Below are positions 199 to 36,339 of a stretch of 36,827 bases of DNA, in pieces. The position numbers and the translations under genes were made by a program. The notes under the pieces are model-generated. The model saw only the letters and a list, made by a program, of their open reading frames with translations. It was not told the origin of the DNA and did not search any database. The stretch is from contig JAUWYL010000012.1 in assembly GCA_030615855.1 (NCBI GenBank), positions 1 through 36,827 of the forward strand, in the 5' to 3' direction. Position 1 is the stretch's first letter, and each line of letters starts with the position of its first letter. This DNA comes from a bacterium. Its GTDB lineage: Bacteria; UBP18; UBA7526.

Positions 199-228
199 CT
201 GGTTACTGTTCGCTGGTTACTGGTTACT
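199..228. repeat. Degenerate 7-mer array (CTGGTTA)x4
   Basis: ctggtta ctgttcg ctggtta ctggtta. Confidence 0.85.
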
Positions 229-246
229 TATTCATTGCTATTTGCT

Positions 247-275
247 ATAATATCACACTATTTCTAACGGGGCAA
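247..275 (-). promoter_or_regulatory. Sigma70-type promoter for the four-helix-bundle gene
   Basis: Minus strand TTGCCC-17 nt-TATTAT with TGn extension. Confidence 0.55.
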
Positions 276-283
276 GTTTTTTC

Positions 284-312
284 TTGCAAAAATTTTAGAG
301 AGGAGATATAAT
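284..312 (+). promoter_or_regulatory. Sigma70-type promoter for the PPIase gene
   Basis: TTGCAA(284-289)-17 nt-TATAAT(307-312). Confidence 0.7.
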
Positions 313-318
313 ATTACT

Positions 319-436
319 GTGAACGGTGAACAGTGAACAGCGATCGGTGATCAGTAGACAGAAGTTAACAAGGATACAAGTTAACAAGAAAATACGAGAA
401 TAAGAGAATACGAAAATACGTATCAACTTATTAACT
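319..436. repeat. Stacked arrays: 7-mer GTGAACA x5, 8-mer AAGTTAAC x3, 8-mer ARAATACG x4, then inverted TATYAACT x2
   Basis: Read directly at 319-356, 362-388, 389-420 and 421-436. Confidence 0.8.
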
Positions 437-462
437 ATCCGAATGGAGTGGGGAGGCAAGTT

Positions 463-1860
463 ATGGTAATGCTCAAGATCATGCGCAGAAGGGCAAGAAG
501 GATTCTTTGGATTACCATCATTTTAATTATACCGGCCTTTATCTGGTGGGGCACAGGGGGATTGCGCGAAAGGGAGATAGGCCTGGTCGCTTCGGTAAAC
601 GGGAAGGGGATCACAAGAGAGGTTTATTACAAGGAAGTTGAGAGACTCTACCGGGGGATGCGAGAGAGGATGGGGGATGCATTCGATGAGAGAATGGCGA
701 AGATTCTGAACCTGGAGGAAGCGGCGGTAAACGACTTGGTTAAAAGAGAGCTCCTTCTTCAGGAAGCGAAAAGGGAAAAGATAAGAGTAAGCGATGAAGA
801 ATTACGAGAAAAGTTAAAAAGCTTCCCTGCCTTCCAAAGGGAAGGTAGATTTGACAAAGAGGTTTACTTTAATGTCCTAGAATATCTCAGGATTACTCCC
901 AAAGAATTGGAGGAAGGGATAAGAGAGGATCTCGCAATGGTAAAACTTGAAAATCGGATTCTAGCAGGAGTGAAGGTGAGTGAAGAGGAGATAAGGAATG
1001 AGTATCTGAAGGAAAATGAAGAGATAGAGATTGAATATCTTCTTATAAAACCCGAGAAAGATATAAGGCCTGAGGAAGAAGAGATAGAAGAATACTACCA
1101 GAAGCAGAAAGAGGATTACCGGATACCAGAGAAGATAAGGGTAAGACACATCTTGATTAAGGGAAAAGAGGCCCGCGAAAGAATAAAGGAAGTAAGCAAG
1201 AGATTAAAGAGGGGGGAAGGTTTCGAGAAGCTGGCTAAAGAACTCTCCCAGTGTCCCAGCAAAGAGAAGGGGGGAGATCTGGGCTTCTTTAAGAGGGGGG
1301 ATATGGTAGAAGAGTTTGAGAGAGTGGCTTTTGGATTAAAAGAAGATCAGATATCCCGCCCGGTAAGAAGTAGGTTTGGCTACCACATCATTAAGTTAGA
1401 AGAGAAAAGAGAATCTCATATCCCACCGTTAGAAGAAGTAAGAGAGAGAATAAAAAGAACTTTAAAAGAAGAAAAGAGATGGGAGACGGCCAGAGAAAAT
1501 GCTCAAGAAATAGCCAAGGGAATAGAAAGAGAAGATTTAGAGGTCTTGGCCAAAAGGTCCTCCTTGGAGGTTAGGGGGACTGGTCTTTTCAAGCGTGGGG
1601 GGAGCAATCTGCCCCGGGAGATTGAAGAAGAAGCCTTTGGCCGCAAAGTGGGTGAAGTGAAGGGTCCTCTAAGGGGAAGGGATGGCTATTACATCGTTAA
1701 ACTGGTTAAACGAAAAGAAATAGACGAAGAAAGATTCGGTCAAGAAAAAGAGGCCTTTAGCAGAGACTTCATTCAAAAGAAAAGAGCAATGGTCTATAAT
1801 CAGTGGTATCAGGATCTATATCAAAAAGCCAAAATTAAAATTTATCCTGCAGAAAGGTAA
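463..1860 (+). CDS. SurA N-terminal domain / PpiD-like parvulin peptidyl-prolyl isomerase, membrane anchored
   Basis: N-terminal TM helix, VASVNG SurA-N motif, parvulin motifs VRHILI, FEKLAKELS, GGDLG, FGYHIIK. ATG 463 chosen after GGGAGG (track start 448). Confidence 0.9.
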   Translation: MVMLKIMRRRARRILWITIILIIPAFIWWGTGGLREREIGLVASVNGKGITREVYYKEVERLYRGMRERMGDAFDERMAKILNLEEAAVNDLVKRELLLQEAKREKIRVSDEELREKLKSFPAFQREGRFDKEVYFNVLEYLRITPKELEEGIREDLAMVKLENRILAGVKVSEEEIRNEYLKENEEIEIEYLLIKPEKDIRPEEEEIEEYYQKQKEDYRIPEKIRVRHILIKGKEARERIKEVSKRLKRGEGFEKLAKELSQCPSKEKGGDLGFFKRGDMVEEFERVAFGLKEDQISRPVRSRFGYHIIKLEEKRESHIPPLEEVRERIKRTLKEEKRWETARENAQEIAKGIEREDLEVLAKRSSLEVRGTGLFKRGGSNLPREIEEEAFGRKVGEVKGPLRGRDGYYIVKLVKRKEIDEERFGQEKEAFSRDFIQKKRAMVYNQWYQDLYQKAKIKIYPAER

Positions 1861-1864
1861 GGGG

Positions 1865-3439: not shown

Positions 3440-3469
3440 AACTCCCTAACTTACCTAACTCACCTAACC
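3440..3469. repeat. 9-mer array (AACTYACCT)x3
   Basis: 3447-3468 is the exact reverse complement of 36114-36135. Confidence 0.8.
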
Positions 3470-3471
3470 TC

Positions 3472-4455
3472 CTAATAGACAACATTAATCTCTTCCCCGC
3501 AATACTGGCACTTTTTCTCTTTTAAATGTATCTTGGAGATAGAGTATCCATCGCGGACGATTAAGGCCTTCTTGCACTTTGGGCAATAGGTGGTATTGGC
3601 GCTGGGGTCTAAGATATTCCCGATATAGACATGTTTTAATCTCTTCTGGGCTAGTTCCCTCGCTTTCTCTAAGGTAGTTACTGGGGGGGGTGGAATATTC
3701 AACTTATAGGCAGGAAAATATCTTGAGAAATGTAAAGGGGTATCATCCCCTAACTTATCCGCTATCCAATTAATCAATTTTTCAAAGTCCTCATCTGAAT
3801 CATTCAGGGTAGGGATGATAAGGTTGGTGATCTCCACATGGCAGGACTTCCTCGCTCTCTCTGCCGTCTTTAGAATAGGGGCCAAGGTGGCCTTACAATA
3901 TTCTTTATAGAAGGATTCCTTCATGGACTTGACATCGATATTCATGGCGTCAATAAATGGAAGAAGTTCCTCAAAGGGCTCGGGATTAATGTAGCCGTTA
4001 GTGACCAAAACATTGGCCAGTCCCTTTTCCTTAGCTAACTTCGCTGTTTCTAAGAGATACTCATACCAGATCAAGGGCTCGGTATAGGTATAGGCAATCC
4101 CCACAGAATCCTTCTTTAGGGCAAGTTCCACCATCTCTTTGGAAGTGATATGCTGGGTAGGGGTCTCCTCCTGGGATATGGTCCAGTTCTGGCAATAGAG
4201 GCAAGCAAAGTTGCAGCCATTAGGTGCGCAGGAAAGAATGAGAGAGCCAGGATGAAAGTGATATAAGGGCTTCTTCTCTATAGGGTCAACAGCAATTGAG
4301 ACACACTCCTCATAAGTCAGGGCGATTAATTTTCCATCTATGTTCTTCCGTCCCCGACAGAATCCCCTCTTTCCCGGAGCAATGACACACTCCTTGGGAC
4401 ATAAAAGACACTTTATCTTATCGTCTATTCTTTGGTAATATAATGCTTCCTTCAT
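3472..4455 (-). CDS. amrS: AmmeMemoRadiSam system radical SAM enzyme
   Basis: CLLCPKEC..G.CRGR, DPIEKKPLYHF, CNFACLYCQNW radical SAM motif, C-terminal CPKC/CQYC. Confidence 0.95.
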   Translation of the reverse strand: MKEALYYQRIDDKIKCLLCPKECVIAPGKRGFCRGRKNIDGKLIALTYEECVSIAVDPIEKKPLYHFHPGSLILSCAPNGCNFACLYCQNWTISQEETPTQHITSKEMVELALKKDSVGIAYTYTEPLIWYEYLLETAKLAKEKGLANVLVTNGYINPEPFEELLPFIDAMNIDVKSMKESFYKEYCKATLAPILKTAERARKSCHVEITNLIIPTLNDSDEDFEKLINWIADKLGDDTPLHFSRYFPAYKLNIPPPPVTTLEKARELAQKRLKHVYIGNILDPSANTTYCPKCKKALIVRDGYSISKIHLKEKKCQYCGEEINVVY

Positions 4456-4480
4456 CTTGCTTCCCCGCTTAAAGAATAGA

Positions 4481-4556
4481 GGTTAACAGTTTACCCGCTC
4501 CCCCGATTCATCGGGGTCGCTGTTTACCGTTAGCCGTTAACCGTAAACCGTAAACC
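4481..4556. repeat. 7-mer CCGTWAA array with palindrome CCCCGATTCATCGGGG (4501-4516)
   Basis: Read directly; same unit at 6110-6153, near-identical palindrome at 34319-34334. Confidence 0.8.
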
Positions 4557-4575
4557 CTATCATTCTAGTTGCTGG

Positions 4576-6082: not shown

Positions 6083-6109
6083 GGAAATACCTCCCCATGT
6101 TTTAAGTGG

Positions 6110-6153
6110 TCGTTTACCGTTAACCGTACACCGTAAACCGTCAACCGTTAACC
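6110..6153. repeat. 7-mer array (CCGTTAA-like)x6 overlapping the rnfB stop
   Basis: cgttta ccgttaa ccgtaca ccgtaaa ccgtcaa ccgttaa cc. Confidence 0.85.
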
Positions 6154-6947
6154 ATTTCAATGGCGTGAGTGGGGCATTTCTCGACACAGGCCCCACACTC
6201 TGTGCACTTCCCGTAATCGATATGGGCTAAGTTGTCCTTTAGGGTTATCGCTTTCTCTGGACAAACCTTGACACATATTCCACATCCTATACAGCCTTCC
6301 TTGCATATCTTCCTTACTATGGCTCCCTTATCCTTAGAGTTACAGAGAACGTGGACCCCCTTCTCTTCAGGAACTAAGGCAATCACTCCTTTAGGGCAGA
6401 TGGAGACGCACTTGCCACATCCAGTGCATCTCTCTTCGTTTATTTCAATTTTCCCTTTAATTAGAGTGATGGCCCCGAAGGGGCAGGCAAGAATACAGTC
6501 TCCCAATCCCAGACAGCTATAGAGACAGGCCTTATTCCCACCAAACAAGAGAGCCGCTGCCCGACAGCTTTCCAAGCCCCGATAGTCAAACTGAGTCTGG
6601 GAAGCTCCTCTATGATAACAAAGAATCTTGGCGATTCTCTTCTCTCTGACCTCTACCTCTACTCCCAGGATAGAAGCAACTTGATTGGCTACCCCTTCCC
6701 CACCAGGGATGCAGCCATTGGCCTGGGCCCTTTCCTCAATGAGTGCCTTGGCAAAGCCGCTACACCCCGCAAAACCACAGGCTCCGCAGTTTGCTCCAGG
6801 TAGAATCTCCAGTATGGCCTCTACCTTGGGATCTATCTTTGAGACAAGTTTCTTGGAGGCATAGGCCAGTCCACTCCCGGCTAATAGGCCCAAGCCACCC
6901 AACACAATTATAGAAAGAGTTATAGGATTAAGCACCAAATACTCCAT
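6141..6947 (-). CDS. rnfB: Rnf complex subunit B (polyferredoxin)
   Basis: N-terminal TM, LPGANCGACGFAGC, several CxxCxxCxxxCP motifs, operon position. Confidence 0.93.
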   Translation of the reverse strand: MEYLVLNPITLSIIVLGGLGLLAGSGLAYASKKLVSKIDPKVEAILEILPGANCGACGFAGCSGFAKALIEERAQANGCIPGGEGVANQVASILGVEVEVREKRIAKILCYHRGASQTQFDYRGLESCRAAALLFGGNKACLYSCLGLGDCILACPFGAITLIKGKIEINEERCTGCGKCVSICPKGVIALVPEEKGVHVLCNSKDKGAIVRKICKEGCIGCGICVKVCPEKAITLKDNLAHIDYGKCTECGACVEKCPTHAIEMVNG

Positions 6948-6956
6948 GAATAGGAA

Positions 6957-7057
6957 GGTTAATATCGGTTAAAAACTGTTAATAATGGTTAAAATCGGTT
7001 ACATTAAAAAGCAACTGATATTAACCGCTATTAACTACTGTTAACTGTTATTAACTA
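6957..7057. repeat. Inverted pair of 10-mer arrays (GGTTAAWAWC x5 / TTAACYNNTR x4)
   Basis: Exact 10-nt periodicity on both arms; arms are approximate reverse complements. Confidence 0.85.
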
Positions 7058-7063
7058 ATCTGT

Positions 7064-7645: not shown

Positions 7646-8232
7646 TACACTCTCCGTAGTCTATTCATTAGTCCCAATAGAAGGCCTAAAACGATGAATG
7701 CTCCCGGAGGAAGGAGCATAACTATAAAGAGAGGATAGCCTTCTCCTAAGAGAGCAAATCCAAAGACGGTTCCACTTCCCAGTATTTCCCTTATACTACC
7801 CAGAACGATTAAAGAGATGGTGAAGCCCAGCCCCATTCCCAAACCATCAATGAGAGAACGAAGGAGGGGATTCTTTGAGGCGTAAGCCTCTGCCCTTCCC
7901 AAGATGATGCAGTTAACAACAATGAGCGGTATGAAGAGGCCGAGCACCTTATGCAGTTCGTAGAAGAAGCCGGCCATGAGCATATCGATGATGGTAACGA
8001 AGGAGGCAATGATGACGATGAAGGCCGGAATCCTCACCCGAGGAGGAATGAATCTCCGTAACAAAGAAATAGTACAATTTGAGCCAACTAAGACTACGGT
8101 AGTGGCCAGCCCCATAGCCACCCCATTTATAGCAGCAGTAGTCACAGCTAAGGTGGGACACATTCCGAGAAGTAGTCTGAATATTGGATTCTCGGTAACG
8201 AATCCCTTGGTAAACTCTTTCCTCAAACCCAC
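7645..8232 (-). CDS. rnfE: Rnf complex subunit E
   Basis: ENP...[27 protein letters not shown]. Confidence 0.96.
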
Positions 8233-8248
8233 TCTAATTCTCCATAAA

Positions 8249-8468
8249 GGTTACATCTGACGGTTACGGCAACGAGGCCCGTATCGGTAACATTGCAGGG
8301 TTACGTTGAAAAAATCAAATGTTAAAAATTAAATATTAAAATCACAGATTAAAATCCAAAATTTTACATTTTATATTGTCATTTTGATTTTTGCATTTTG
8401 ATTTTTGATATTGCGCTATATCATTTGATATGGGCATCATAATCCTAACCGAACGACGATAAACCAAC
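8249..8468. repeat. Nested element: outer GGTTAC units, inner inverted 7-mer AAAATCA/TGATTTT arrays (8309-8410)
   Basis: ggttac at 8249, 8262 and 8299, ggtaac at 8286, taacc remnants near 8446-8466; inner arms read directly. Confidence 0.7.
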
Positions 8469-8474
8469 TTTTGT

Positions 8475-9053
8475 TTACTGTCCAATCAGAATCTGTTCTT
8501 TGTATTTCAGGAAAACTTTTAGTCCCTTATCCACCGCCTCTACTATTCCCCGGGAAGAGATGGTGGCACCAGTCAAAGCATCGATGTCCCCCTTATCCTT
8601 CTTGACCGCTAATCTTCCATCAACCAATTTAGAATTGGCTAAGGACTTTTCTTTGAACTGGTTCTTAAATTCCTCCTTCTCAATATTTGCTCCCAGGCCG
8701 GGGGTTTCCATATGCTCCAAAATCTCTATGCCAGTAATAGAATCATCTTCTGGGTTCACTCCCATCATAATGGTGATGAAGCCACTATATCCTTCCCCTT
8801 TTGAGGAGAAGGCAACTCCAGTAATTTCTCCCTCCTTTTTCCCTAAATAAAAGGTTATTCCTTCAATCTCCTTTTTATCCTTTAAGGGATCGTTATCGAA
8901 GGGAGGGAGGACAGATTTGATGGCCTTCAAATGGGCTAATCTCTTCTGCTCTAAGCGAGGCTCCTTTGTGAGTCTATCCACTCCTGCCAGGGCCAAAGCA
9001 GCAATGAGGCAGACCAGAGTTAAAACAATAACCAACCTCAGTGACTCTCTCAT
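8475..9053 (-). CDS. rnfG: Rnf complex subunit G
   Basis: ETPGLGA and FMN-attachment motif DALTGATISS; ATG 9053 after GAGGT (track start 9068). Confidence 0.95.
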   Translation of the reverse strand: MRESLRLVIVLTLVCLIAALALAGVDRLTKEPRLEQKRLAHLKAIKSVLPPFDNDPLKDKKEIEGITFYLGKKEGEITGVAFSSKGEGYSGFITIMMGVNPEDDSITGIEILEHMETPGLGANIEKEEFKNQFKEKSLANSKLVDGRLAVKKDKGDIDALTGATISSRGIVEAVDKGLKVFLKYKEQILIGQ

Positions 9054-9086: not shown

Positions 9087-9277
9087 AAGATACAATAACT
9101 AAACAACATACTTAAAATCCGAAATCCGAAACCAGAAATCCGAATAAATGTCCAAATGCCTCAATGATTAAATTTGACATTTGGAAATTTGAGCATTGAT
9201 TCGTCATTCGGGTTTCGTCATTCTAATTTGATTATTAGTGATTAGTTATTGTTTGATGTTTGTATCTTGTATCTTGG
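9087..9277. repeat. Nested inverted 7-mer elements: outer AAGATAC/GTATCTT, inner AAATCCG..AAATG / CATTT..TTCG
   Basis: Outer arms about 9087-9106 and 9235-9277; inner element about 9114-9229. Confidence 0.8.
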
Positions 9278-10234: not shown

Positions 10235-10256
10235 AAAGTCCTCTCTTTGTTATTTC

Positions 10257-10397
10257 AATGCAAAATGAAAAATTAGCAATGAACAATGCAAAATTATTTA
10301 TTCTCTTTTACAGTAACAAAACATAAAGGTCCTTGTTTTCCTTAATAATTAGTTCAGTTATAAATTGTTAATTTTGCACTGCTAATTTTGCACTTTT
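10257..10397. repeat. Inverted pair of 7-mer arrays AATGCAA / TTGCACT
   Basis: Left arm 10257-10295, right arm about 10340-10397. Confidence 0.75.
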
Positions 10398-11758: not shown

Positions 11759-11879
11759 AACCACAGATTTTCACCAGATTCTCACAAGATTTTTGAAATT
11801 TCCTCTGTGTTAACCCCGCCCCTGCGTGCAGGAGCGGGGTTAATCTGTGCAATCTTGTGGTTTCATTAAAGTTCCGATG
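11759..11879. repeat. CACAGAT-family dispersed element, copy 1, with 26-bp palindrome between two TTAA
   Basis: First 35 bp identical to 21852-21886; insert at 11814-11839. Confidence 0.85.
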
Positions 11880-12429: not shown

Positions 12430-12484
12430 TCACCCCTTAATTTAGGATAGACGCCAGGCAATCTGGCTAGATTCTTCGCACTGC

Positions 12485-12552
12485 TCAGAATACAGGAAAT
12501 CAGGTGATCAGGAACTTCCTGATCGCCTGATGACCCGATAACCCGATCACCC
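12485..12552. repeat. Inverted pair of 8-mer arrays TCAGGTGA / CCYGATNR
   Basis: caggaaat caggtgat cagg aactt cctgatcg cctgatga cccgataa cccgatca. Confidence 0.85.
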
Positions 12553-13668: not shown

Positions 13669-13690
13669 TTCTTCTCCTGCCCAACCAAGA

Positions 13691-13843
13691 TAACCCCTTC
13701 GGGGTTACTTCCATAGGGGCTTTGCCCCTCTGGCGGTCGGCAAAGGCATGCTTTGCCTCCCTGTCACCCCCTGGGGGCAAGCAGATTCTTTCCCCCCAGA
13801 CCCCCTAATCATCGGTATCGGAATTTATTGAAATTCCGATACC
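13691..13843 (-). other. Run of five GC-rich hairpins in the predicted tsaC leader
   Basis: Stems at 13691-13707, 13715-13729, 13739-13757, 13771-13799 and 13814-13843. Confidence 0.6.
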
Positions 13844-13862
13844 TCAAATCCATCTCACAACG

Positions 13863-13962: not shown

Positions 13963-14052
13963 AAAAAGCCCACCTCAAAATGACGGCGCGCTTCGCTCTC
14001 CGCCGTCTTTTGCTTATTGAAGTTTCGATACTTCAAAATAGAGGTAGGCTTT
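13963..14052 (-). terminator. Terminator-like stem with two extra hairpins in its loop
   Basis: aaagcccacctc...gaggtaggcttt followed by T-run on the minus strand, downstream of the hydrolase gene. Confidence 0.5.
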
Positions 14053-18284: not shown

Positions 18285-19868
18285 TTAGTGTCTGAAGTGT
18301 CTTATTCCAGTAAAGGCCATGGCTATATTATGCTCGTCACAGGCTTTAATTATTTCTTTATCTCTTATTGAACCCCCTGGTTGGATAATAGCAGAAACCC
18401 TTGCTTTCGCTGCCTCATCGATGGAATCCCTAAAAGGGAAGAAGCCATCAGAAGCCATCACTAAGGGGATGTGGGATGTGGGATGTGGGATGTGGGATTG
18501 CATTTTTGAAATGGCGATTTTGACTGCGTCAATACGAGAGGTCTGGCCAGCACCGATGCCCAAAGCCTCGGTCTTGTTGCCTATGACGATAGCATTGGAC
18601 TTAATATATCTTACCACTTTCCAATTGAAAAGTAAAGCCTTTATTTCTTCTTGAGTGGGCGATCTTCTGGTCATCACTTTCAGCTCTTTAATTTCGATAT
18701 CTTCAGTATCTCTATCCTGAACCAATAATCCCCAGTCTACTGTCCGCATATCTTTTTGGTGATCGGTGATCCGACCCGGCTTTGCCGGGTGCCCGCGGTG
18801 ATCGGTGATTTTTATTACTCGTAGATTCTTCTTCCTCTTCAAAACTCTCAAAGCCTGAGGAGTGAATTCAGGGGCGATCACTGCCTCAATGAAGGTGGAG
18901 GTTAGCTCTCCAGCTGTAGGAGTATCGACCTTTCTATTCAGGCCGACCACTCCTCCAAAGGCAGAAAGGGGATCGCAGGCTCTCGCCTTTCGATAGGCGC
19001 TAACTAAATTTCTATCTCTCGCTACTCCGCAGGGGTTGGTATGCTTAATAATAACCGCAGTCGGCTCCTTAAACTCTTTGACTATAGTTAAAGCAACATC
19101 CAGATCCAGAATGTTATTAAAGGATAACTTCTTCCCCCATAGTTGCTTCCAATTTTGCATTTTGCATTTTACATTTTGCATTTGATACAGGGCTGCCCTC
19201 TGATGGGGATTCTCCCCATACCTCAAATTCTGTACCTTCTCATATTCTAGGTATAATTCTCTCGGTAACTGGTAACTGGTAACTGGTAACTGGTAACTCT
19301 TTAAGTATCCATATACCATTCTATCATATTTCAGGAGATATCTAAGGGCTTTTTTTGCTAAATTCTCTTTAGTCTTTTGTGATAGATTGCCCTTTCTTTT
19401 CCTTAATTCATCTAGGGTTCTTTTATAATCTTCAGGATTGATGATTACTCCCACATTCTGGTAGTTTTTGATCGCTGCTCTAATCAGAGCTGCTCCTCCA
19501 ATATCCATACCCTCTAAATTTTTCCTGGGGGGGTAGAGGTTAACGGCGACAAGATTGATGGGTTTTATATCTTCTCTGGCCAGCTCTTTCAAATGCTTTC
19601 TGTTACGTAAGGCTAATATGCCCCCAAAAATCGCAGGATGCAGGGTCTTTACTCTCCCTCCTAAAATTTCCTTAAAGTCTGTAATCTCTGAGACGGTTTT
19701 GACTGGGATATCCTTCTTTTTAAGTGTTCTCGCTGTGCCCTTAGTAGCGATGATTTCAAAGCCCAATCTCACTAATCCCTTAGCAAAAGGAACAAGACCT
19801 TCTTTATCGGCAACACTAATTAAAGCTCTCTTTATTTTCTTTCCCGTCGAAAATTTTTCATTTTTCAT
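18285..19868 (-). CDS. purH: Bifunctional AICAR transformylase / IMP cyclohydrolase
   Basis: RALISV, GRVKTLHP, LRYGENPHQ, KHTNPCGVA, KSNAI, ASDGFFPF, GIRHFRH. Confidence 0.97.
   Translation of the reverse strand: MKNEKFSTGKKIKRALISVADKEGLVPFAKGLVRLGFEIIATKGTARTLKKKDIPVKTVSEITDFKEILGGRVKTLHPAIFGGILALRNRKHLKELAREDIKPINLVAVNLYPPRKNLEGMDIGGAALIRAAIKNYQNVGVIINPEDYKRTLDELRKRKGNLSQKTKENLAKKALRYLLKYDRMVYGYLKSYQLPVTSYQLPRELYLEYEKVQNLRYGENPHQRAALYQMQNVKCKMQNWKQLWGKKLSFNNILDLDVALTIVKEFKEPTAVIIKHTNPCGVARDRNLVSAYRKARACDPLSAFGGVVGLNRKVDTPTAGELTSTFIEAVIAPEFTPQALRVLKRKKNLRVIKITDHRGHPAKPGRITDHQKDMRTVDWGLLVQDRDTEDIEIKELKVMTRRSPTQEEIKALLFNWKVVRYIKSNAIVIGNKTEALGIGAGQTSRIDAVKIAISKMQSHIPHPTSHIPLVMASDGFFPFRDSIDEAAKARVSAIIQPGGSIRDKEIIKACDEHNIAMAFTGIRHFRH
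18466..18498. repeat. (GGGATGT)x4.7 in frame in purH
   Basis: Perfect array; encodes SHIPHPTSHIP. Confidence 0.95.
18758..18809. repeat. (GGTGATC)x4 split by hairpin ACCCGGC-TTT-GCCGGGT, in frame in purH
   Basis: Encodes ITDHRGHPAKPGRITDHQ. Confidence 0.9.
19152..19184. repeat. (ATTTTGC)x4.7 in frame in purH
   Basis: Encodes QMQNVKCKMQN. Confidence 0.92.
19264..19298. repeat. (GGTAACT)x5 in frame in purH
   Basis: Perfect array; encodes SYQLPVTSYQLP. Confidence 0.95.
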
Positions 19869-21851: not shown

Positions 21852-21944
21852 AACCACAGATTTTCACCAGATTCTCACAAGATTTTAAAAACTTTCTCTG
21901 TGCTAATCTGTGTTAATCTCGTGGTTCTTATTTAAGTTACGATG
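21852..21944. repeat. CACAGAT-family dispersed element, copy 2 (no insert)
   Basis: Aligns with 11759-11879 once the 30-bp insert is removed. Confidence 0.85.
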
Positions 21945-21983: not shown

Positions 21984-22011
21984 ACTATAATCAAGATTTC
22001 TGATTTGTCAA
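21984..22011 (-). promoter_or_regulatory. Probable sigma70 promoter for purB operon
   Basis: TTGACA-16 nt-TATAGT. Confidence 0.55.
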
Positions 22012-22045
22012 CCCCCCACCCCGGAACTTCCGTGGTGGGGGGTTG
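22009..22045 (-). terminator. Strong hairpin downstream of the cold-shock gene
   Basis: caaccccccacc-ccggaacttccg-tggtggggggttg. Confidence 0.55.
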
Positions 22046-22062
22046 TTTGTTAAACTAAGAAA

Positions 22063-22266
22063 TTACTTTTCTAATTTAACAACATTCTTTGCCTGAGGGC
22101 CACGGGAACTTTCTTCGATCTCAAACTCTACCTCATCACCTTCCGCTAAGGATTTGAACCCTTCGCTTGTGATGGCAGAGAAGTGAACGAAGACATCCTT
22201 ACCACCCTCTTGTTCAATGAAACCAAAACCTCTCTTTTCATTGAACCACTTCACTTTACCTCTCAT
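22063..22266 (-). CDS. Cold-shock protein
   Basis: [29 protein letters not shown]. Confidence 0.97.
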
Positions 22267-23086
22267 CTCTTCTCCTTTCTATTAGTTTCCTTTTGATCCT
22301 ATAGATGATTCCTTTCTTTCTCTTCATCTCCTTCTTAAGTTGGGGGATGACTTCCTGGGTTGCCCGGTAGCCAGCTTGCAAGAGTTCCCGGGCCCTCTTT
22401 AAATCTACTTTGGAGATATCCCCGACCTCGGGATAGATAACGAGATCAGCATCCTTCTTGGCTCTCTCTGCTCCCTGACGGGAGATCACATCCCAGGACT
22501 GAAGAATTACCTGGAAGACGTTCTTGGGCTCCGGGCTTATGGTCGCCCTGGTATTGACATCCACCCCAATGACAAAGTCTGCCCCCATCCTGTGTAGCAC
22601 ATCTGTAGGAAGGATATTGACCACTCCCCCATCGACCAGAAGCATACCCTCATATTTTACCGGGGTATAGACCCCAGGAATAGAACAGGAGGCCTGGACA
22701 ATTCTTGCCAATGGCCCTTCCTTAAAGATCACTTCTCTTTCGCTAATTAAATCTGTGGTAACGATAGCTAAAGGAATCTTTAGTTCTTTAAAATTCCGCA
22801 CCCCGGTATGCTCTGAGACAAACTCCTCTATTCCTTTTCCCGAGATGAGGCCCATCTTAGGTAAGGTGAAGTCAGCAAGCTCCCTCCATTTTAAGGCGAG
22901 AGCCTTCTCTTCGATTTTATCGATATCCAATCCTGACGCATAGAGAGCGCCGATGAGTGCTCCGCTTGAAGCTCCAGCGATTATATCTATGGGAATCCGG
23001 GCTTCGCTTAAGGCCTTCAGAGCCCCAATATGGGCAATCCCCCTTGCCGCTCCTCCACTCAGAGCAAGACCGACCTTCACTTTCAT
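22256..23086 (-). CDS. Patatin-like phospholipase
   Basis: [17 protein letters not shown] nucleophile, DGG; ATG 23086 avoids overlap with upstream gene. Confidence 0.92.
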
Positions 23087-27015: not shown

Positions 27016-29916
27016 CTAAAAAACTACCGCCATTCCCAGCCAGGGCCGAACATCCTCGTAGTCATCGAAGCCATGGGCTAAGGCAAGTTCCAGGTTCAGA
27101 GGAATATGATAGAAGATGAAGGATTTCAGGCGAATCCCAGCTCCGGCATCAGTATCGAAGTCACCGATGGATAGTTTCCCTTGGAACCAGGCAGTACCAC
27201 TATCCACAAAGAGCATGCCATATAGCCTGTCAAGATAGAAGAAGGAGAGCTTCTTTCCCATATCCTGTAGGATGGGAAAGCGATACTCTGCGCTCCAGAA
27301 GCCCATCTTATCTCCGCGAAAAGAGTTATATTCATAGCCTCTCAGGTTCTCCATCCCTCCTAAGAGGAAGGCGCCCTGGCTCAGGTTATGTCCCTTACAG
27401 AAGCCCCCCATGGCTCTCAGGGCCAGGGTATGACGCTTATAGAGGGGAATATATTCTCGCCAATCCAGGGTATATTCGTTGAAGTTGAAATCGCTCCCAT
27501 AGGATTCATCTGCTAAAGCATAAGAAAGGATGACCCGTCTCCCTTGCGGGTTGATATCCATGTCCAGAGTAGGTTTTATCCGATAATGCATGAGGCTCGC
27601 TCCCCAGGTAGCGATATGGCCATCATCTGGAAGATTGGGAGGATTAATGTCCCTGTCGGTATCTATGTCATCAACGAAGTAAGCCTCATAATCTAATAAT
27701 AGATACCCTATCGGTACCAAGGGAAAGCCAGCACCTACTATTCCTCCCCGCCTCCTCTCCCAGTAATCATCGGTCAGATTATCCTGATTGGGACCCTCAA
27801 TATAGTTGGTGTAACCAAGAGAGTAATCATAAGCACCAACTAGGATATTGGGAAAGAACTGACGATTGAGATAGTAGGCATAGCCCGATACCCCCCCATA
27901 CCCCCCATAGCCAATAGCGCTTTGGAAGATATGTTTCCCCATGACATCTTGGGCGTAGCCCATGACGCTCAAGCCCAGGGGCATCCATAGAATGGGCCTT
28001 ATTCTCGGTCGATACTTTCTTACCGGGTATTCCTCCCTCTCCTCTGCTTCAGGATTATTACTTGAAAATGAATCGGGGAATCGGTGTATTTCTGTATCGG
28101 TGTAACGGCGCGTCGGTGTATCGGTGTAATTCTCTTCTACTCCCTTACTCCGATACTCCGTTACTCCCTTACTTCCTTCTTCCTTCTCTAAGACCTTAAT
28201 GTCATAGCCATCTGCGCTATAAGCGGAGAAGACGACCCCCTCTCTCCCAGAAGAGTAGGAAGGCTCAAAGGCTCCCCCAATGACATTGGTCAGTTGTTTT
28301 ACCCTCTTTGTTTCTAAATCGAGTTCATAGATGTTGAAGATTCCCGTCCTATCTGAGGAGAAGATGATTCTCTTGCCATCCTTTGACCAGGAGGGATCCC
28401 GATCATCCGCTTTATCATTGGTAAGGGAGACTATTTCTGATCCATCGACATTCATTAGATATAGATCCCTCTGGCCGTCCTTGAATCTGGAGAAGACGAT
28501 CTTCTTTCCCTCTGGTGAGAACTTGGGAGTGAAGTACTGAGTGTAGTCCTCGGTCTTTGTAAGATAGATAACCTCTTCTGTTTCCAAACTAAAGAGGCAA
28601 ATATTCGTCTTCCCTCCTTCATTCTTGATAAAGACAATAGTTTTTCCATCTGGTGAGAGATGGGGCTCCTTGGCCCTCATCCCCCGGGTGAGGCGCCTCT
28701 TCTTATTTACCTGCGTCCAGTCAATGAGATAGAGATCACTATAATAGGAACCCCGCCAGTTATACCAATTCTTAGAGTAGACTAACTTCTCTCCATCATA
28801 GGAGAAGGAGGGATCGGGATTGACTTTCCCCGCCAAGCACCTATGTTTCTCACTATCCAGGTCCCAGAGATAGAGCCTTAATCTCTCATAGTCCTGACCC
28901 TTATTGGAGACAAAGGCTATCTCATTTTTAGTTGGCGAGAAGGTAGGATGCCTATCACACCATCCCCGGGAGACCAGGTCCTTGACATTCTCATCAGGGG
29001 TGATATGCTTAGTCTCTTCCCTATACTTCTTCTCCAGATCCTCCTTCCACTCCTTATAGAGCCACCTGGGAGTATCCTTCACTCGGTAATACATATTTCT
29101 CTTTAGGGACAGATAATTATGGCCTTTTCCCTCTAAGATGGAGGCGATACCTTCTTCCCCGTGCTTCTTCTTCATATATTTGGTGAGAGAATAGCCCTGA
29201 TTGTAGACCATCTCATTCCCTAAGCCGTTCTTCCCATAGACCCCCATCCGATTATAGGTGAGTAGCTTATCCTCTAATGTTGCACTCCTTAGGATCATAT
29301 CTCGATGGCTATCCCAGAATTCCCCTCCGCCTTCTTCGCTGGTATCCTGGGCCAATCCCTCAATGAACCAAGAGGGGACGAATTCACTGGGCCCGGGGAA
29401 TCCCGGACCGAATACCTTAACCAGCCTTCTGGGAAGACCGCTCATGATATCTAGATGGACGATGTGAGTAAACTCGTGAGGGATGACCGTCTCCAGCCAC
29501 TTATGGGTTCCCCTCAAGGAAATATCCATATGGGTGAGCCAGATGACAATCCTCTGATTTGCGGAATCGGCAAATCCATTGGCATAATCATCAGTATCTA
29601 AGATAATGATGTGGGTCTTGGCCTCTGGCTCATGGCCCAGTCTCTTGGTAATCGGTCCATAGCATCTCTCCGCAATCTGGGCTACATCCTTAGCAACGTC
29701 TGTATGTTTTCTCTTATCAAAGTAGACCAGAAAATGAGGGGTCTCCATGACATACCACTTTATCTCTGGATGGTTGAAGGGAGACCAGGGAACCTGCCCC
29801 AGGATAATTTCCTCTGGGGTCTTAGGAATTAAATTAGGGGATAGAAGATTCTGAGCAAGTATATTCTGGGAAAAGAAGAGGACTATTAAGACTAAAGTAA
29901 AAAATATTTTTTTCAT
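27016..29916 (-). CDS. Exported gluzincin-like peptidase domain + PD40/TolB-like beta-propeller + BamA/TamA-like C-terminal barrel
   Basis: Signal peptide, HEFTH..WFIEGLA, repeated P.FSP.G..I.F blades, LGG..NLRGY...F.G, SAEYRFP, FVDSG, C-terminal F; ATG 29916 preferred. Confidence 0.8.
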   Translation of the reverse strand: MKKIFFTLVLIVLFFSQNILAQNLLSPNLIPKTPEEIILGQVPWSPFNHPEIKWYVMETPHFLVYFDKRKHTDVAKDVAQIAERCYGPITKRLGHEPEAKTHIIILDTDDYANGFADSANQRIVIWLTHMDISLRGTHKWLETVIPHEFTHIVHLDIMSGLPRRLVKVFGPGFPGPSEFVPSWFIEGLAQDTSEEGGGEFWDSHRDMILRSATLEDKLLTYNRMGVYGKNGLGNEMVYNQGYSLTKYMKKKHGEEGIASILEGKGHNYLSLKRNMYYRVKDTPRWLYKEWKEDLEKKYREETKHITPDENVKDLVSRGWCDRHPTFSPTKNEIAFVSNKGQDYERLRLYLWDLDSEKHRCLAGKVNPDPSFSYDGEKLVYSKNWYNWRGSYYSDLYLIDWTQVNKKRRLTRGMRAKEPHLSPDGKTIVFIKNEGGKTNICLFSLETEEVIYLTKTEDYTQYFTPKFSPEGKKIVFSRFKDGQRDLYLMNVDGSEIVSLTNDKADDRDPSWSKDGKRIIFSSDRTGIFNIYELDLETKRVKQLTNVIGGAFEPSYSSGREGVVFSAYSADGYDIKVLEKEEGSKGVTEYRSKGVEENYTDTPTRRYTDTEIHRFPDSFSSNNPEAEEREEYPVRKYRPRIRPILWMPLGLSVMGYAQDVMGKHIFQSAIGYGGYGGVSGYAYYLNRQFFPNILVGAYDYSLGYTNYIEGPNQDNLTDDYWERRRGGIVGAGFPLVPIGYLLLDYEAYFVDDIDTDRDINPPNLPDDGHIATWGASLMHYRIKPTLDMDINPQGRRVILSYALADESYGSDFNFNEYTLDWREYIPLYKRHTLALRAMGGFCKGHNLSQGAFLLGGMENLRGYEYNSFRGDKMGFWSAEYRFPILQDMGKKLSFFYLDRLYGMLFVDSGTAWFQGKLSIGDFDTDAGAGIRLKSFIFYHIPLNLELALAHGFDDYEDVRPWLGMAVVF
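28070..28174. repeat. In-frame inverted pair of 8-mer arrays (ATCGGTGT / TACTCCNW)
   Basis: Encodes SKGVTEYRSKGVEENYTDTPTRRYTDTEIHRFPDS between propeller and barrel. Confidence 0.85.
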
Positions 29917-30019: not shown

Positions 30020-30025
30020 TCACGC

Positions 30026-32463: not shown

Positions 32464-32464
32464 C

Positions 32465-33171: not shown

Positions 33172-33185
33172 TTTCTCCCTCCTTC

Positions 33186-33357
33186 ATCCACAGATACTCA
33201 CAGATTATCTACAGATTGGCACCTACCTACGCCAAGGCTTTTCGGCAGGCAGGCAGATCACAGATAGCATCTGCGGTCATCTGCGTCTTGATCTGCGGAC
33301 ATTGCTTGATATTCATGCTCTCTCGGATGCCAGCGAAGCGCATCCGGCATCTGCGTC
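33186..33357. repeat. Inverted CACAGAT / ATCTGCG arrays with two palindromes (33222-33253, 33324-33346)
   Basis: Removing 33222-33253 restores ...attggcacagatcacagat. Confidence 0.85.
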
Positions 33358-34103
33358 TACATGGCGAGGCCACCATCTATTCTTATTACCTGACCGGTGA
33401 TATAGTCTGCCTCCTCACTAACCAAAAAGATTACTACCTTTGCTACTTCCTCTGGAGTGCCCACTCTCTTTAATGGCGTTATCTTCAAAATCCGGTCCAG
33501 CATCTCTTTAGGCATCTTCTTAACCATCTCGGTATCAATGAGTCCTGGAGCAAGGGCATTAACCCTTATGCCAAAAGGAGCCAGTTCTCTGGCTAAAGAT
33601 TTGGTGAAACTGATCATCCCTCCTTTAGCAGCGGAGTAGTTCGTTTGACCCGCAGTGCCAGAAATGGCAGAGACAGATGAGATATTGACAATGTTTCCGC
33701 TCCTCTGACCAATCATAACTCTCGAAACCGCCTTAGAGCAGTTGAATGTTCCTTTGAGATTGACATCTATTACCTTATCCCACTCTTCCTCATTCATAAT
33801 CATCAAATATTTATCAATGTTAAGCCCCGCATTATTAATCAGGATATCAATCCTTCCAAATCGCTTGTTAATTTCCTCCACCATCCTATTCACTTCTTCC
33901 AATTTAGAGACATCTGCCTTATGACTAATCGCTTCCCCGCCCTTTTCCTTTATTCTTTTTACCACTTCTTCTGCGGCATCCTGGCTATGGAGATAATTGA
34001 CACAGACCTTTGCCCCTTCCCTTGCCAGAGCAAGAGAGATTGCTCTTCCAATCCCCCTTCCTCCACCAGTCACCAGGGCAACCTTTTCCTTAAGAAGTCC
34101 CAT
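33357..34103 (-). CDS. fabG: 3-oxoacyl-ACP reductase
   Basis: TGGGRGIG, NNAG, GQTNYSAAK. Confidence 0.93.
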   Translation of the reverse strand: MGLLKEKVALVTGGGRGIGRAISLALAREGAKVCVNYLHSQDAAEEVVKRIKEKGGEAISHKADVSKLEEVNRMVEEINKRFGRIDILINNAGLNIDKYLMIMNEEEWDKVIDVNLKGTFNCSKAVSRVMIGQRSGNIVNISSVSAISGTAGQTNYSAAKGGMISFTKSLARELAPFGIRVNALAPGLIDTEMVKKMPKEMLDRILKITPLKRVGTPEEVAKVVIFLVSEEADYITGQVIRIDGGLAM

Positions 34104-34158
34104 ATCTCATTACCACAAAATAAAATTTAGACCAAGCACTTCGCCTGTCTAACTTAAA

Positions 34159-34188
34159 ATTATAACACAGGTCTGAGACAAAAATCAA
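34159..34188 (-). promoter_or_regulatory. Probable promoter for fabG-acp-fabZ-KS-KS operon
   Basis: TTGATT-18 nt-TATAAT with TGn extension. Confidence 0.55.
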
Positions 34189-34293
34189 TTATTTATTAGA
34201 CCAAACAATATTTAGCCATCTTCCAATCTTCGAAGATGCGAAGATACTACTGATTGGTATTATGAGGGCGCCCATTCGCTTGCCCCCTCTACT

Positions 34294-34345
34294 AAGAAAG
34301 CCCGAATAACAAGGTTCTCCCCGATTTATCGGGGAGGCTTTCTTA
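34294..34345 (-). terminator. Terminator-like stem after fabD containing palindrome CTCCCCGATTTATCGGGGAG
   Basis: aagaaagcc...ggctttctt with inner hairpin 34317-34336. Confidence 0.5.
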
Positions 34346-35263
34346 TTATAACGTGCTTAATGTACGGATTGTCTTTTCTAATGATGACAAATTATCTACA
34401 TTCAGGATCTTGACTTCGCGAGTTATCCACTGGACGAGTTGGGAGAGGACCTGGCCCGGACCAACCTCGATGAAGGTATCCACTCCTTCAGAAAGCATTC
34501 GGCGTATGCTTTCTTCCCAGAGAACGGGCTTCGTTATCTGCTTTACTAATATTTCTCTTACCCTTTCTTTATTTCTTAGGTAGTCTGCATCGAAGTGGGT
34601 AATTAGAGGAGTCTTGGGTTTCTTTATTTCAATGGACTCTAAATAAGAGGCCAACTTTTTGGAAGCCTTCTCCATCAGTTTGGTATGTAGGGGACTGGAA
34701 ACGTTTAAGGGGACGGTTTCTAAGGCATCTTTCTTGGCCAAATCTATCGCTTTATCTAAGGCACTTTTCTCTCCAGATATGACGAACTGTTTGGGAGAGT
34801 TATGATTGGCAATTGCTGTTCCAGATAATCGACAAATCTCTTCTATTTCTCTCTTATTTAATCCGATGATGGCTACCATTCCTCCAGGAACTTCCTGGAT
34901 CAATTCTCCTGCTTTCTTTGTTAATTTAAGCCCAGCCTCAAAACTCAAGGCTCTACTAGCCACTAAAGCAGTATATATCCCCAGGCTATGCTCTCCAATA
35001 ACATCAGAAGCGATTCCTCTCCCTTTCAATATCTGGTAAGTAGCGATACTTACTGTAAAGACCCCTAATTGGGCATTGAGGTCTTTATTTAACTCTTCTT
35101 CTGGCCCTTCAAAAGAGACTCTCGCTAAATCGAAGCCAAGAATCTCATCTGCTCTCTGAAATATCTCTCTTGCTTCTTTAAAATCATCATAGAACTCCTT
35201 CCCCATCCCCACATACTGAGAACCCTGACCGGGAAAGAGAAAGGCAATCTTAGATTTTGGCAT
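34346..35263 (-). CDS. fabD: ACP S-acyltransferase, FabD family, atypical active site
   Basis: FPGQGSQYVGMG, EHSLG, PLHT, EVGPG.VL. Confidence 0.85.
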   Translation of the reverse strand: MPKSKIAFLFPGQGSQYVGMGKEFYDDFKEAREIFQRADEILGFDLARVSFEGPEEELNKDLNAQLGVFTVSIATYQILKGRGIASDVIGEHSLGIYTALVASRALSFEAGLKLTKKAGELIQEVPGGMVAIIGLNKREIEEICRLSGTAIANHNSPKQFVISGEKSALDKAIDLAKKDALETVPLNVSSPLHTKLMEKASKKLASYLESIEIKKPKTPLITHFDADYLRNKERVREILVKQITKPVLWEESIRRMLSEGVDTFIEVGPGQVLSQLVQWITREVKILNVDNLSSLEKTIRTLSTL

Positions 35264-36104
35264 AAGTGGTCTTGCTCACTCCAGGAACAAGGACCTTCCT
35301 GGCTGTTAGAAAATAGATGCCCTGGGCCCAGAGATTGAAATAATTCGTCCAGAACCTGTCCATTCTTCTCTCTGGAGAGGTTGGCTTTCCGATGACTGTC
35401 TCTATTCTCTTGAAGCCTGCCTTCAGTAAGAACTCTCTCAATATCTCTGATGAGAAGTCATAGAGGTGCATGGGCGGATGGAAGAGGTTGCGCCTCACCC
35501 CAAAGAACCTCAAGAACCTCTCTGCCGATATACTCTGGGGGACCCTGATGGCTAAGAGACCATCCTCTTTTAAGATCCTTCTCGCCTCTTTTAAGACTTT
35601 TAAAGGATGAGGAAGATGCTCCAGGACATAGAACATAGTGACAACATCGAAGTAGTTATCGCTAAAATCTGTCTTCTCTAAAGAGCCTTGCCTAACATTC
35701 AATCCCTTACTCTGGGCATACCCAACCGCTTTCTTAGAGATATCTATACCAAAGAGTTCCCATTTTTGGGGGTCCCATAACTCCAAGAATAGTCCCAATC
35801 CACATCCCATATCTAATAATTTCCCAGAAGAATATTTTCTCTCAATGTTTCTTTTTGTTTCCTCATATACTCTTCCCATCAATCTCGACCATTGAGAAAC
35901 GCTCTCCTCATCAGTGGAAAAGAAGTCATCATAGAACTCTAAGAGGTCCTCTTCTCTTGGCCGGGGATTAAGATAGATGAGGCCGCATCTCTTACATTCA
36001 ACGATCTTAAAAGAATTCTCAACGGTTACTATCCTTGTATTATCTGCCCCACATAGACCACAACTGACATATTCTAAGGTTTTGTTATAATTCCATTTAG
36101 GCAT
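35250..36104 (-). CDS. Class I SAM-dependent methyltransferase with N-terminal Zn-binding cysteines
   Basis: CGLC..CKRC, LLDMGCGLG, FDVVTMFYVLEH; ATG 36104 (track extension to 36308 is repeat-derived). Confidence 0.88.
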   Translation of the reverse strand: MPKWNYNKTLEYVSCGLCGADNTRIVTVENSFKIVECKRCGLIYLNPRPREEDLLEFYDDFFSTDEESVSQWSRLMGRVYEETKRNIERKYSSGKLLDMGCGLGLFLELWDPQKWELFGIDISKKAVGYAQSKGLNVRQGSLEKTDFSDNYFDVVTMFYVLEHLPHPLKVLKEARRILKEDGLLAIRVPQSISAERFLRFFGVRRNLFHPPMHLYDFSSEILREFLLKAGFKRIETVIGKPTSPERRMDRFWTNYFNLWAQGIYFLTARKVLVPGVSKTTYAKI

Positions 36105-36113
36105 GGCACCCCA

Positions 36114-36339
36114 GTTAGGTGAGTTAGGTAAGTTAACTTTTGTATTTTCCCGTCTTTCGGTATACGTTGAAGGGTTGCGCCCGCCTTCCATAGTAATACT
36201 ATTACGGCGGACAGGCTGCTCGTTACGTTTTACGTTAATCAGTTGCGTTTTGTTACGAATGACGATAGACGACGGCCGAAACGAGCTTCGCAACCGCAAT
36301 CCGACCACCTACGGTGGATGGATTGACGATGGACGGCGA
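36114..36339. repeat. Patchwork of arrays (GTTAGGTRA, CGTT-core, GACGATR) with palindromes at 36180-36215 and 36298-36324
   Basis: Read directly. Confidence 0.75.

Follow-up and report, generated by a model that had tools for sequence, protein, structure and literature searches.

Two separate puzzles, the spread of heptamer-type tandem repeats and the intervening sequences (IVS) of rRNA with their four-helix-bundle genes, meet at high density in a single structure on the DNA described here, a 36,827-nt contig of an uncultured sediment bacterium (JAUWYL010000012.1, referred to over its whole length as the window) that carries many short tandem arrays, some of them paired as facing inverted arms. 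Among the described systems closest to it, the short tandemly repeated repetitive (STRR) heptamers are reportedly a few fixed words (STRR1-3) of heterocystous cyanobacteria, and they and the 5-11-nt long simple sequence repeats (SSRs) were reportedly described by Mazel 1990 and Mrazek 2007. The small dispersed repeats (SDR) of Nostoc punctiforme, reportedly described by Elhai et al. 2008, are said to be dispersed elements of very small size that have inserted into tandem heptamer repeats. Direct repeats of the word TAACTGA occur in Beggiatoaceae, Cyanobacteria and Bacteroidetes, with 169 direct sets and 1 inverted set in BOGUAY, and the paper describing them contains 0 mentions of IVS, four-helix-bundle or GxxExxY genes (PMC4679880). 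Miniature inverted-repeat transposable elements (MITEs) and repetitive extragenic palindromes (REP/REPIN) are, according to one account, presumably moved in trans (PMC3116915). Finally, the 23S rRNA IVS of Coxiella burnetii, located in helix 45, has a 28-bp terminal stem, an S23p open reading frame (ORF) in its loop and three tandem GACAGAT heptamers, variable in number between strains, at an RNase III site; the report calls the origin of the IVS unclear (PMC4990558).

The arrays analysed here are probably the arms, or leftover arms, of small hairpin cassettes with fast turnover, designed like the ORF-bearing IVS of 23S rRNA. As in the IVS of Coxiella, Leptospira and others, terminal inverted repeats form a long stem at the paired loci, a PF05635 (S23p, four-helix-bundle) gene lies in the loop in all seven testable cases (the window itself holding only a truncated gene), tandem heptamers vary in number and ORF-less forms exist. 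Unlike those IVS, every cassette examined is located between protein genes or within one, in the mRNA spacers of ordinary operons and in a few cases in frame within genes, and none lies in the tip of a 23S rRNA helix, the genome's own rRNA genes being outside the comparison. In addition, the paired loci number about a hundred across 1.4 Mb and are mostly ORF-less, with many different units and nested arrangements, and GxxExxY genes form a second cargo. The first-pass annotation, made from the window alone, had proposed an undescribed mobile or repeat-writing system. Heptamer arrays and ORF-bearing rRNA IVS with heptamer stems were already published, and what stands of that claim is the link between the two together with the ORF-less population: no published link between heptamer arrays and four-helix-bundle or GxxExxY cassettes outside rRNA was found, in a literature search that covered subscription journals poorly. 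The system is best read as real, dense and unusual, consisting of IVS-type hairpin cassettes and their empty derivatives, and as not categorically new on present evidence.

The window is contig C7 of the G000 assembly (1.375 Mb, 45 contigs, 93.6% complete). It was compared with five family-level relatives (G001-G005); all other genomes used for comparison are related to it at the domain level only.

Dispersed cassette families

A BLAST search of the window against its own genome returned about 30 multi-copy segments, which coincide with the cassettes. The hairpin cassette that we call family A (6957..7057) occupies the spacer between rnfA and rnfB, and its arms consist of about 4.5 units of GGTTAAWAWC and their complement; it is present at 14 genome loci that have ends and loop in common and lie in unrelated flanks. 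Likewise, a composite cassette in the rnfG/rnfE spacer (8244..8458), in which outer GGTTACG-type stems surround an A-rich (8309-8356) and a T-rich (8362-8410) arm, belongs to a family of 24 loci. A third family, with 18 loci, is represented at 12444..12552 by a 60-nt dispersed core (GGATAGACGCCAG...) followed by an TCAGGTGATCAGGAAC arm and its complement, the arrays of the family reading ATCAGRAY. Dispersed cores of 47-60 nt inside arrays, here and at 33269-33359 (the core of the present family spanning 12444-12500), resemble the SDR as reportedly described.

Cassette segments also match non-syntenic contigs in all five relatives, and in contigs of four other sediment metagenome runs the cassettes, including the one at 8244-8458, reach 15-50 times the depth of their flanks. 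Searched for with a 24-nt pattern, family A was found at 9 loci, most of them in metagenome-assembled genomes (MAGs) labelled only 'bacterium', and an Ignavibacteriales MAG, from another phylum, carries a cassette with both arms of the GGTTAAWAWC 10-mer family. A match in a Methanobrevibacter MAG covers only the A/T-rich left end of the pattern and looks like chance. A sub-threshold Rfam match of family A to a microRNA precursor, obtained on both strands, was set aside as a generic hairpin match. Judged from their sequences, the paired arms are dispersed multi-copy cassettes with defined ends and not products of local slippage. The earlier argument that slippage is insufficient to explain facing arms is borne out, since cassettes have been copied between loci and replaced at syntenic sites.

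Turnover at syntenic spacers

Comparison of orthologous spacers among close relatives shows a range from stop/start overlap to nested cassettes of about 350 nt. At rnfA/rnfB, family A is present in G000 and in G002, whose left arm has one 10-mer fewer while the other arm is unchanged; G001 has a TGATG stop/start overlap and hence a 0-nt spacer, and G004 has an unrelated cassette. This comparison leaves out G003, in which the spacer reads N (L016 2884-3011). At rnfG/rnfE, the cassette of G000 recurs in G002 with an additional small hairpin at its centre, whereas G001 reads TGAATG without a spacer; the spacer of G003 consists of 75 unrelated nt, and in G004 a family-A cassette encloses a further cassette. 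The corresponding gaps in G000 measure 116 nt (6948-7063) and 242 nt (8233-8474), while the same genes overlap or abut in G001; the likely start of rnfB in G000 is a GTG downstream of the ATG chosen by the ORF tool. A folded hairpin might bring stop and start close together again, which would preserve translational coupling.

The nested hairpin in the rnfG/rnfD spacer (9087..9277) has outer arms (AAGATACAATAAC... / ...TTGTATCTT) around an inner array of AAATCCG x4.3 and its partner. Its outer arms are common to G000 and G002, and its inner arms have been replaced by other units. In the rnfD/rnfC spacer (10256..10397), an AATGCAAAATGAAAAATTAGC-type arm is accompanied by a distal ATTTTGCAC arm and the outer arms pair; G001 and G002 have an GGGTAACAAGGG / CCCCTGTTACCCC cassette there instead. 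In a contig of metagenome run X2, with flanks about 94% identical, 86 other letters stand in place of 8219-8546, a strain-level replacement; in contigs of runs X4 and X5 family A is kept with indels in its loop.

Three further sites of the genome extend this picture. At the C6 site, G002 has outer arms only, and in G000 a four-helix-bundle gene with its own inner arms is nested within those same outer arms. At the C44 site, a spacer beside a tRNA gene, four or five different cassettes are found across five genomes. At the C2 site, a gene-bearing cassette is common to G000 and G004, and four other relatives have other cassettes. In the first-pass annotation, arrays conserved in place across distant relatives would have spoken against mobility. 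Intergenic cassettes are not conserved in this way, the in-frame arrays of purH being different in this respect, and the empty alleles that it recommended looking for exist, as G001 lacks a spacer at both rnfA/rnfB and rnfG/rnfE and G002 has an empty hairpin at C6.

Genes carried in the loops

G000 encodes 8 full-length PF05635 genes, one of them with an internal stop, and 3 contig-end fragments, together with 6 matches to GxxExxY families (PF13366 / TIGR04256). Multi-copy cargo genes break the assembly, and their true number is probably above this count. Inverted tandem arrays with Smith-Waterman (SW) scores of 26-34 flank each of the seven four-helix-bundle genes that could be tested, the eighth lying at a contig edge, and 3 of the 6 GxxExxY genes are flanked by such arrays at a score of at least 24. 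Among 141 small background genes, 8 reach a score of at least 24 and 2 a score of at least 30. The four-helix-bundle paralogs are 20-44% identical and each copy has its own repeat unit. Two GxxExxY copies that are 98% identical represent one recent duplicate; they have both arms in common and nothing outside them. All 12 cargo genes with co-directional neighbours are oriented like the operon in which they lie. The idea that paired arms are the ends of a small cargo-gene element is supported by these genes between arms, by the arms that travel with the 98%-identical duplicate and by the filled and empty pair at C6.

One of the contig-end fragments is the 5' part of a four-helix-bundle gene (PF05635 / TIGR02436) on the minus strand of the window (1..123), a cassette cargo gene that runs off the contig start. 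It scores 27.2 bits against PF05635 (profile positions 1-41), below the cut-off because the gene is truncated, and matches TIGR02436 with an E value of 6e-4. The upstream arm of this gene, ACTGGTT x4.4 (AACCAGT on the gene strand; 198..228, minus strand, found by Tandem Repeats Finder, TRF), has 11 other genome matches, and its partner arm would fall beyond the contig end. Contig C6 also begins inside the same four-helix-bundle fragment (G000:C6:1-123).

The association extends beyond this lineage. PF05635 was found in 51 of 121 sampled genomes, and inverted tandem arrays, with units that are all different, flank 24 of 30 four-helix-bundle loci from 30 genomes outside the lineage (reversed control, 2/30).

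Two other observations concern the cargo. The C2-site gene copy of G004 (C146) has a 30-nt in-frame insertion, a small hairpin (CCCCGTAG...CAACGGGG) that is missing from the G000 copy. GIY-YIG mini-genes were considered as a similar cargo and rejected: of 3 small ORFs examined (among 4 PF01541 matches), one has a 14-nt non-tandem inverted repeat and two have none.

Abundance and placement of the arrays

The claim of many short degenerate arrays holds throughout the genome as well as in the window. TRF listed 47 rows for it, which without redundancy amount to 38 arrays (16 of them intergenic, 21 coding and 1 at a gene boundary), compared with about 6.7 expected from the shuffled-genome rate, and 10 of its 18 spacers contain an array. 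Genome-wide, 1547 arrays were detected against 265, 254 and 233 in three dinucleotide shuffles, an excess of about 6-fold that is concentrated by period, with 366 arrays against 30 in shuffles for period 7, 272 against 40 for period 8 and 213 against 53 for period 10. Array density is 5.6 per kb in intergenic DNA and 0.61 per kb inside ORFs, a 9-fold difference based on a crude calling of 1320 ORFs (89.7% of the genome coding). Arrays are present in 438 of the 726 spacers of at least 40 nt, and TRF-detected arrays cover 16.5% of intergenic bases. The median copy number is 3.7. The 366 period-7 arrays comprise 152 distinct units, of which AACCAGT is the commonest (34 arrays). Most units had been said to carry an R-R-T core; the core is indeed present in 346 of 405 units, although shuffled units would give 298, so that the excess is modest.

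These arrays are like the STRR and TAACTGA repeats (the latter in PMC4679880) in that they are mainly intergenic tandem 7-nt arrays of 2-6 copies, some of them reaching into ORFs, with a patchy phylogenetic spread. Words related to TAACTGA occur here as GGTAACT / TAACTGG. They are unlike both in that their words number in the hundreds, that inverted arms face each other, and that dispersed cassette families and cargo genes are present.

Facing arms, hairpins and polarity

Arm pairing is real but concerns a minority of arrays. When a reverse-complement partner was sought within 120 nt at an SW score of at least 24, 132 of 1025 arrays had one, compared with 18 in the reversed and 32 in the complement control (a 4-7 fold excess). 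A partner was found for 108 of 512 intergenic arrays (about 21%) and for 14 of 440 coding arrays, the latter being at the control level. Hence the earlier statement that arms usually face each other stands as an excess over controls, but not as the rule. Small ORFs between facing arms came to light from the list of partners at 150-2500 nt.

The 88 paired loci that were folded as RNA have a mean energy of -38 kcal/mol. In DNA folds compared with shuffles, three of the eight pairs named in the first-pass annotation are strong hairpins, at 6957-7057 (-16.3 kcal/mol, z -5.2), 9087-9277 (-29.1 kcal/mol, z -4.5) and 12485-12552 (z -6.4). At 8309-8410 (z -0.4) and 10257-10397 (z -1.2) arm folds on arm, yet these pairs are A/T-rich and their energy is no better than that of shuffles. 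Pairing is partial at 28070-28174 (z -3.4), and no single hairpin forms at 33186-33357 (z -0.6), even though the CACAGAT units there are near-complementary to the ATCTGCG units. Finally, 34218-34245 is a 28-nt palindrome of pyrimidine-first polarity, as had been reported.

The observation that a purine-rich arm comes first is the most striking point to be confirmed. After removal of duplicates, 92 paired loci remain, of which 69 have a purine-rich left arm, 5 a pyrimidine-rich one and 18 a neutral one (binomial p 2e-15); counted by sequence cluster, 21 are purine-first, 4 pyrimidine-first and 6 neutral. In 149 kb of the five relatives, 11 of 14 loci are purine-first, 1 is pyrimidine-first and 2 are neutral. 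Both base pairs contribute, as A exceeds T in 58 loci against 18 and G exceeds C in 48 against 23. The polarity is weaker at the four-helix-bundle loci outside the lineage (12 purine-first, 6 pyrimidine-first, 6 neutral).

This polarity is a robust rule. Gene orientation cannot cause it, because the property is identical when read on either strand. Two explanations were tried and rejected. The arms do not serve as a supply of stops in six frames, as the purine-rich strand has a stop density of 0.082 where 0.083 would be expected, and the share of arrays with stops in all three frames is 30%, compared with 52% for tandems of shuffled units. Selection on the RNA strand finds no support either, since the sense and antisense strands divide the loci 43 to 40 by folding energy (p 0.98) and do not differ in G-U pairs (333/3995 vs 338/3893). 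Three candidates are left: the polarity may go back to an ancestral design whose purine-rich arm was the leader of the cargo ORF; it may reflect avoidance of Rho loading, as a purine-first hairpin at no time leaves a C-rich strand unpaired (Rho is encoded in G000); or it may result from synthesis onto 3' ends, as in the repeat-writing model discussed below.

A proposed mechanism and the points against it

In the reading that we favour, a cassette would consist of an arm rich in purines and made up of 3-5 degenerate 7-10-nt units, then a centre and then a complementary arm. The centre would usually be empty and would sometimes hold a further cassette or else a small gene that runs in the direction of the host operon and encodes either a four-helix-bundle protein of S23p/Avd-like type or a GxxExxY protein of the PD-(D/E)XK type. 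The comparisons above show dispersed cassette families with defined ends, arms that move with their cargo, and cassettes nested in the centres of older ones. Unit numbers may be altered by slipped-strand mispairing, as the G002 copy of family A, with one unit fewer in one arm only, would suggest, and ORF-less cassettes may have derived from the gene-bearing ones as non-autonomous forms, or may serve them as landing pads. Once the operon is transcribed, the two arms would form a long stem, probably cut by RNase III by analogy with its excision of rRNA IVS; such cutting would make the insertions tolerable. G000 encodes RNase III.

Several results weigh against this reading. A partner was detected for only about one intergenic array in five, and because of this most arrays are tied to cassettes by inference alone. 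At distances of 150-2500 nt, where arms would flank a distant cargo, inverted partners (17) show no excess over direct ones (19), with 3 in the reversed and 0 in the complement control. Of 13 gene-bearing elements, 5 have ORF-less look-alikes with both arms, and the arms are of low complexity, which weakens the match. The arrays of purH lie at the same places in family relatives and so persist in place instead of being inserted afresh. A correlation of array density with four-helix-bundle gene counts across genomes, which the first-pass annotation had suggested examining, is weak: among 40 stretches of up to 20 kb, mean density was 0.72 per 10 kb in genomes with at least 3 such genes and 0.28 in the others (one-sided p 0.02), in a small sample biased by four positive stretches that themselves held a four-helix-bundle gene, and within the positive set density and gene count do not correlate (rho -0.20).

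The comparison with MITEs and REP/REPIN adds two more such points. Like them, as described in PMC3116915, the cassettes are small, mostly non-coding, hairpin-forming, dispersed between genes and multi-copy, and they have the terminal inverted repeats of a MITE. Unlike them, they have arms that are tandem arrays with a unit that differs between families. Target-site duplications, which had also been recommended as a check, are absent in 18 of 19 family-A boundary pairs and amount to 2 nt in one, the boundaries of repeat arms being imprecise. No Y1/RAYT (PF01797), reverse transcriptase (PF00078), DDE_Tnp_1 (PF01609), rve (PF00665) or TnpB-type (PF07282) gene was matched (0 each) in the 93.6%-complete assembly, in which other transposase families were not searched for and from which IS elements, as they often fail to assemble, could be missing. 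The earlier statement that the window has no transposase, integrase or reverse transcriptase agrees with a Pfam scan of its 36 ORFs, which found none.

A wider reading would hold that STRR, the 5-11-nt long SSRs and the TAACTGA repeats are all arms or relics of one class of selfish hairpin cassette first seen as rRNA IVS, that this class enters the centres of existing hairpins, that its ring-forming four-helix-bundle or nuclease cargo acts on its own arms, and that the polarity stems from 3'-end synthesis at a broken hairpin tip. We regard this as doubtful. If true, it would mean DNA mobility without a transposase, integrase or reverse transcriptase of known kind, and cassettes that move without a known transposase would be a new route of genome change. 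These cassettes split translationally coupled genes, remodel protein loops and leave spacers in essential operons that vary from 0 to about 350 nt in relatives of the same genus. Even otherwise, experiments have concrete material in the purine-first rule and in the sites seen here as filled, empty or replaced.

Alternative explanations

Purely local slipped-strand repeats of the STRR or long-SSR type, with facing arms that arise by chance or from terminator palindromes and with nothing that moves, are an unlikely explanation. Slippage would account for the unit numbers that differ between orthologs (such as the 10-mer missing from the left arm of G002 family A), for a perfect 5x GGTAACT in purH where relatives hold diverged versions, for the small copy numbers and for the roughly 80% of arrays without a detectable partner. 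It does not account for whole cassettes with loops and ends that recur at 14-24 unrelated loci and on non-syntenic contigs of relatives, for a single spacer holding unrelated cassettes or none in different relatives, for arms that travel with a cargo gene, or for reverse-complement partners 4-7 fold in excess of reversed and complement controls.

It is similarly improbable that the arrays are regulatory elements selected by the host, such as terminators or attenuators, RNase III sites or sites for translational regulators. Their place in co-directional operon spacers and the large share of spacers that hold one would fit this explanation, as would the position of purine-rich arrays just past the upstream stop (mean relative position 0.34) and of pyrimidine-rich arrays nearer the next start (0.60); in addition, MacGregor 2015 argues for a translational role of TAACTGA repeats (PMC4679880). 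Against this, rnfA/rnfB and rnfG/rnfE overlap or abut without a cassette in a relative of the same genus, and the cassettes are therefore dispensable; units differ between relatives at one and the same spacer; and the folding energies, G-U contents and stop densities given above show neither a difference between sense and antisense strands nor a departure from expectation.

The weakest explanation is repeat writing, in which purine-rich units would be added to both 3' ends of a break, for example at the tip of an extruded hairpin, before rejoining, so that a further pair of arms, built from a new unit, forms inside the old one. It predicts the strand-symmetric polarity seen among loci, clusters and relatives alike, which RNA-strand asymmetry does not explain, and it would suit the new arm pairs inside older pairs, the very large unit diversity and a relationship of the four-helix-bundle proteins to Avd, suggested by a weak NF033474 match. 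Avd is the partner of the reverse transcriptase of diversity-generating retroelements (DGRs). Although the polarity is as predicted, this model, which the first-pass annotation had put forward as one of two, receives no direct support and is very improbable: copies at different loci are alike through both arms, loop and ends, which indicates copying; no PF00078 reverse transcriptase, the only polymerase family tried, was found in the assembly; many units look like one-step variants of each other, so that the polarity could be ancestral and the clusters may not be independent; and around four-helix-bundle genes outside the lineage the polarity is weak.

Other features of the window

Almost all genes of the window are on the minus strand. 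Its ORFs are housekeeping genes, including a SurA/PpiC-type gene, ApbE, Memo with a radical-SAM gene, rnfBAEGDC, rpiB, purH, purB, fatty-acid-synthesis genes and an Omp85/PD40 protein, and no photosynthesis gene is among those identified in the Pfam scan. In an Rfam scan of the window, tRNAs alone were above threshold and there was no rRNA gene. Among the sequencing runs listed for this stretch, none was of RNA.

Upstream of the SurA/PpiC-type gene, three adjoining purine-rich arrays lie on the plus strand at 319..420 (GTGAACA x5.3, AAGTTAAC x3.4 and AATACGAG x3.8). A single array at 3440..3475 (minus strand, AGGTGAGTT-type on the gene strand) separates the radical-SAM and M54 peptidase genes and is followed by a small UUCG-loop hairpin; this spacer has 379 nt of other cassettes in G002 and 53 nt in G003. 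The multi-copy cassette at 4480..4565, with GTTAACC x5 (4522-4556), has 17 genome matches, and its spacer holds a different cassette (AAGTAGTA... / ...CTTTCCCA) in G001, G004 and G005 and only a 37-nt arm in G002. CGTTAAC x6.1 (6111..6153, minus strand) lies inside the 5' region of a flavin-reductase-like ORF and has 13 genome matches; in runs X4 and X5, contigs lack 74 nt at this site (6094 to 6169). The array CAGATTTTCAC x2.7 (11764..11793, minus strand) recurs at 21857-21886.

The composite at 33186..33359, in which CACAGAT units are followed by ATCTGCG units around the dispersed core of about 47 nt (33269-33359), has 19 genome matches and occurs in a G002 spacer as well. The small pyrimidine-first palindrome at 34218..34245, with an ATCTTCGAAGAT core, is also present in the syntenic spacer of G003, and that spacer measures about 40 nt in G001, G002 and G004.

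Some genes contain in-frame arrays. In the PD40/Omp85-domain protein, ATCGGTGT x7.1 and TACTCCCT x5.1 (28072..28178, minus strand) are only partly complementary. In purH (18285-19868), TRF detected three arrays on the minus strand between 18466 and 19298, namely GGGATGT x4.7 (18466-18498), ATTTTGC x4.6 (19152-19183) and GGTAACT x5.0 (19264-19298). Protein alignment places them in variable linkers, where family relatives have diverged versions (SYQLPVTSYQLP vs GYGLQAAGYKLP, among others) and, at the one array compared, the linker of more distant relatives is ordinary and similarly long. In the purH of G002, a 21-residue insertion (PSLRSGYLEVSSEVSREKSRG) is located exactly between the halves of the QMQNVKC/KMQNWKQ repeat, and G004 has a 10-residue insertion near the ITDH repeat.

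The spacer upstream of purB measures 388 nt in G000 and 2262 nt in G002. In G000 it contains a sub-threshold match to the cspA thermoregulator RNA (22006-22349, minus strand; 40.7 bits against a gathering score of 78). Three further dispersed elements were observed. The first, of 165 nt (13684-13848), contains no tandem array but includes a perfect hairpin (GGTATCGGAATTTATTGAAATTCCGATACC); it has 6 further genome copies at 77-93% identity and many non-syntenic copies in all five relatives. The second, of 66 nt (13976-14041), has 5 near-full genome copies at 89-94% identity and copies in relatives as well. The third, of 93 nt (34258-34350), has a hairpin (CTCCCCGATTTATCGGGGAG) at its end, and in G005 (C18:2635-2975) it occurs as four head-to-tail copies of about 84 nt.

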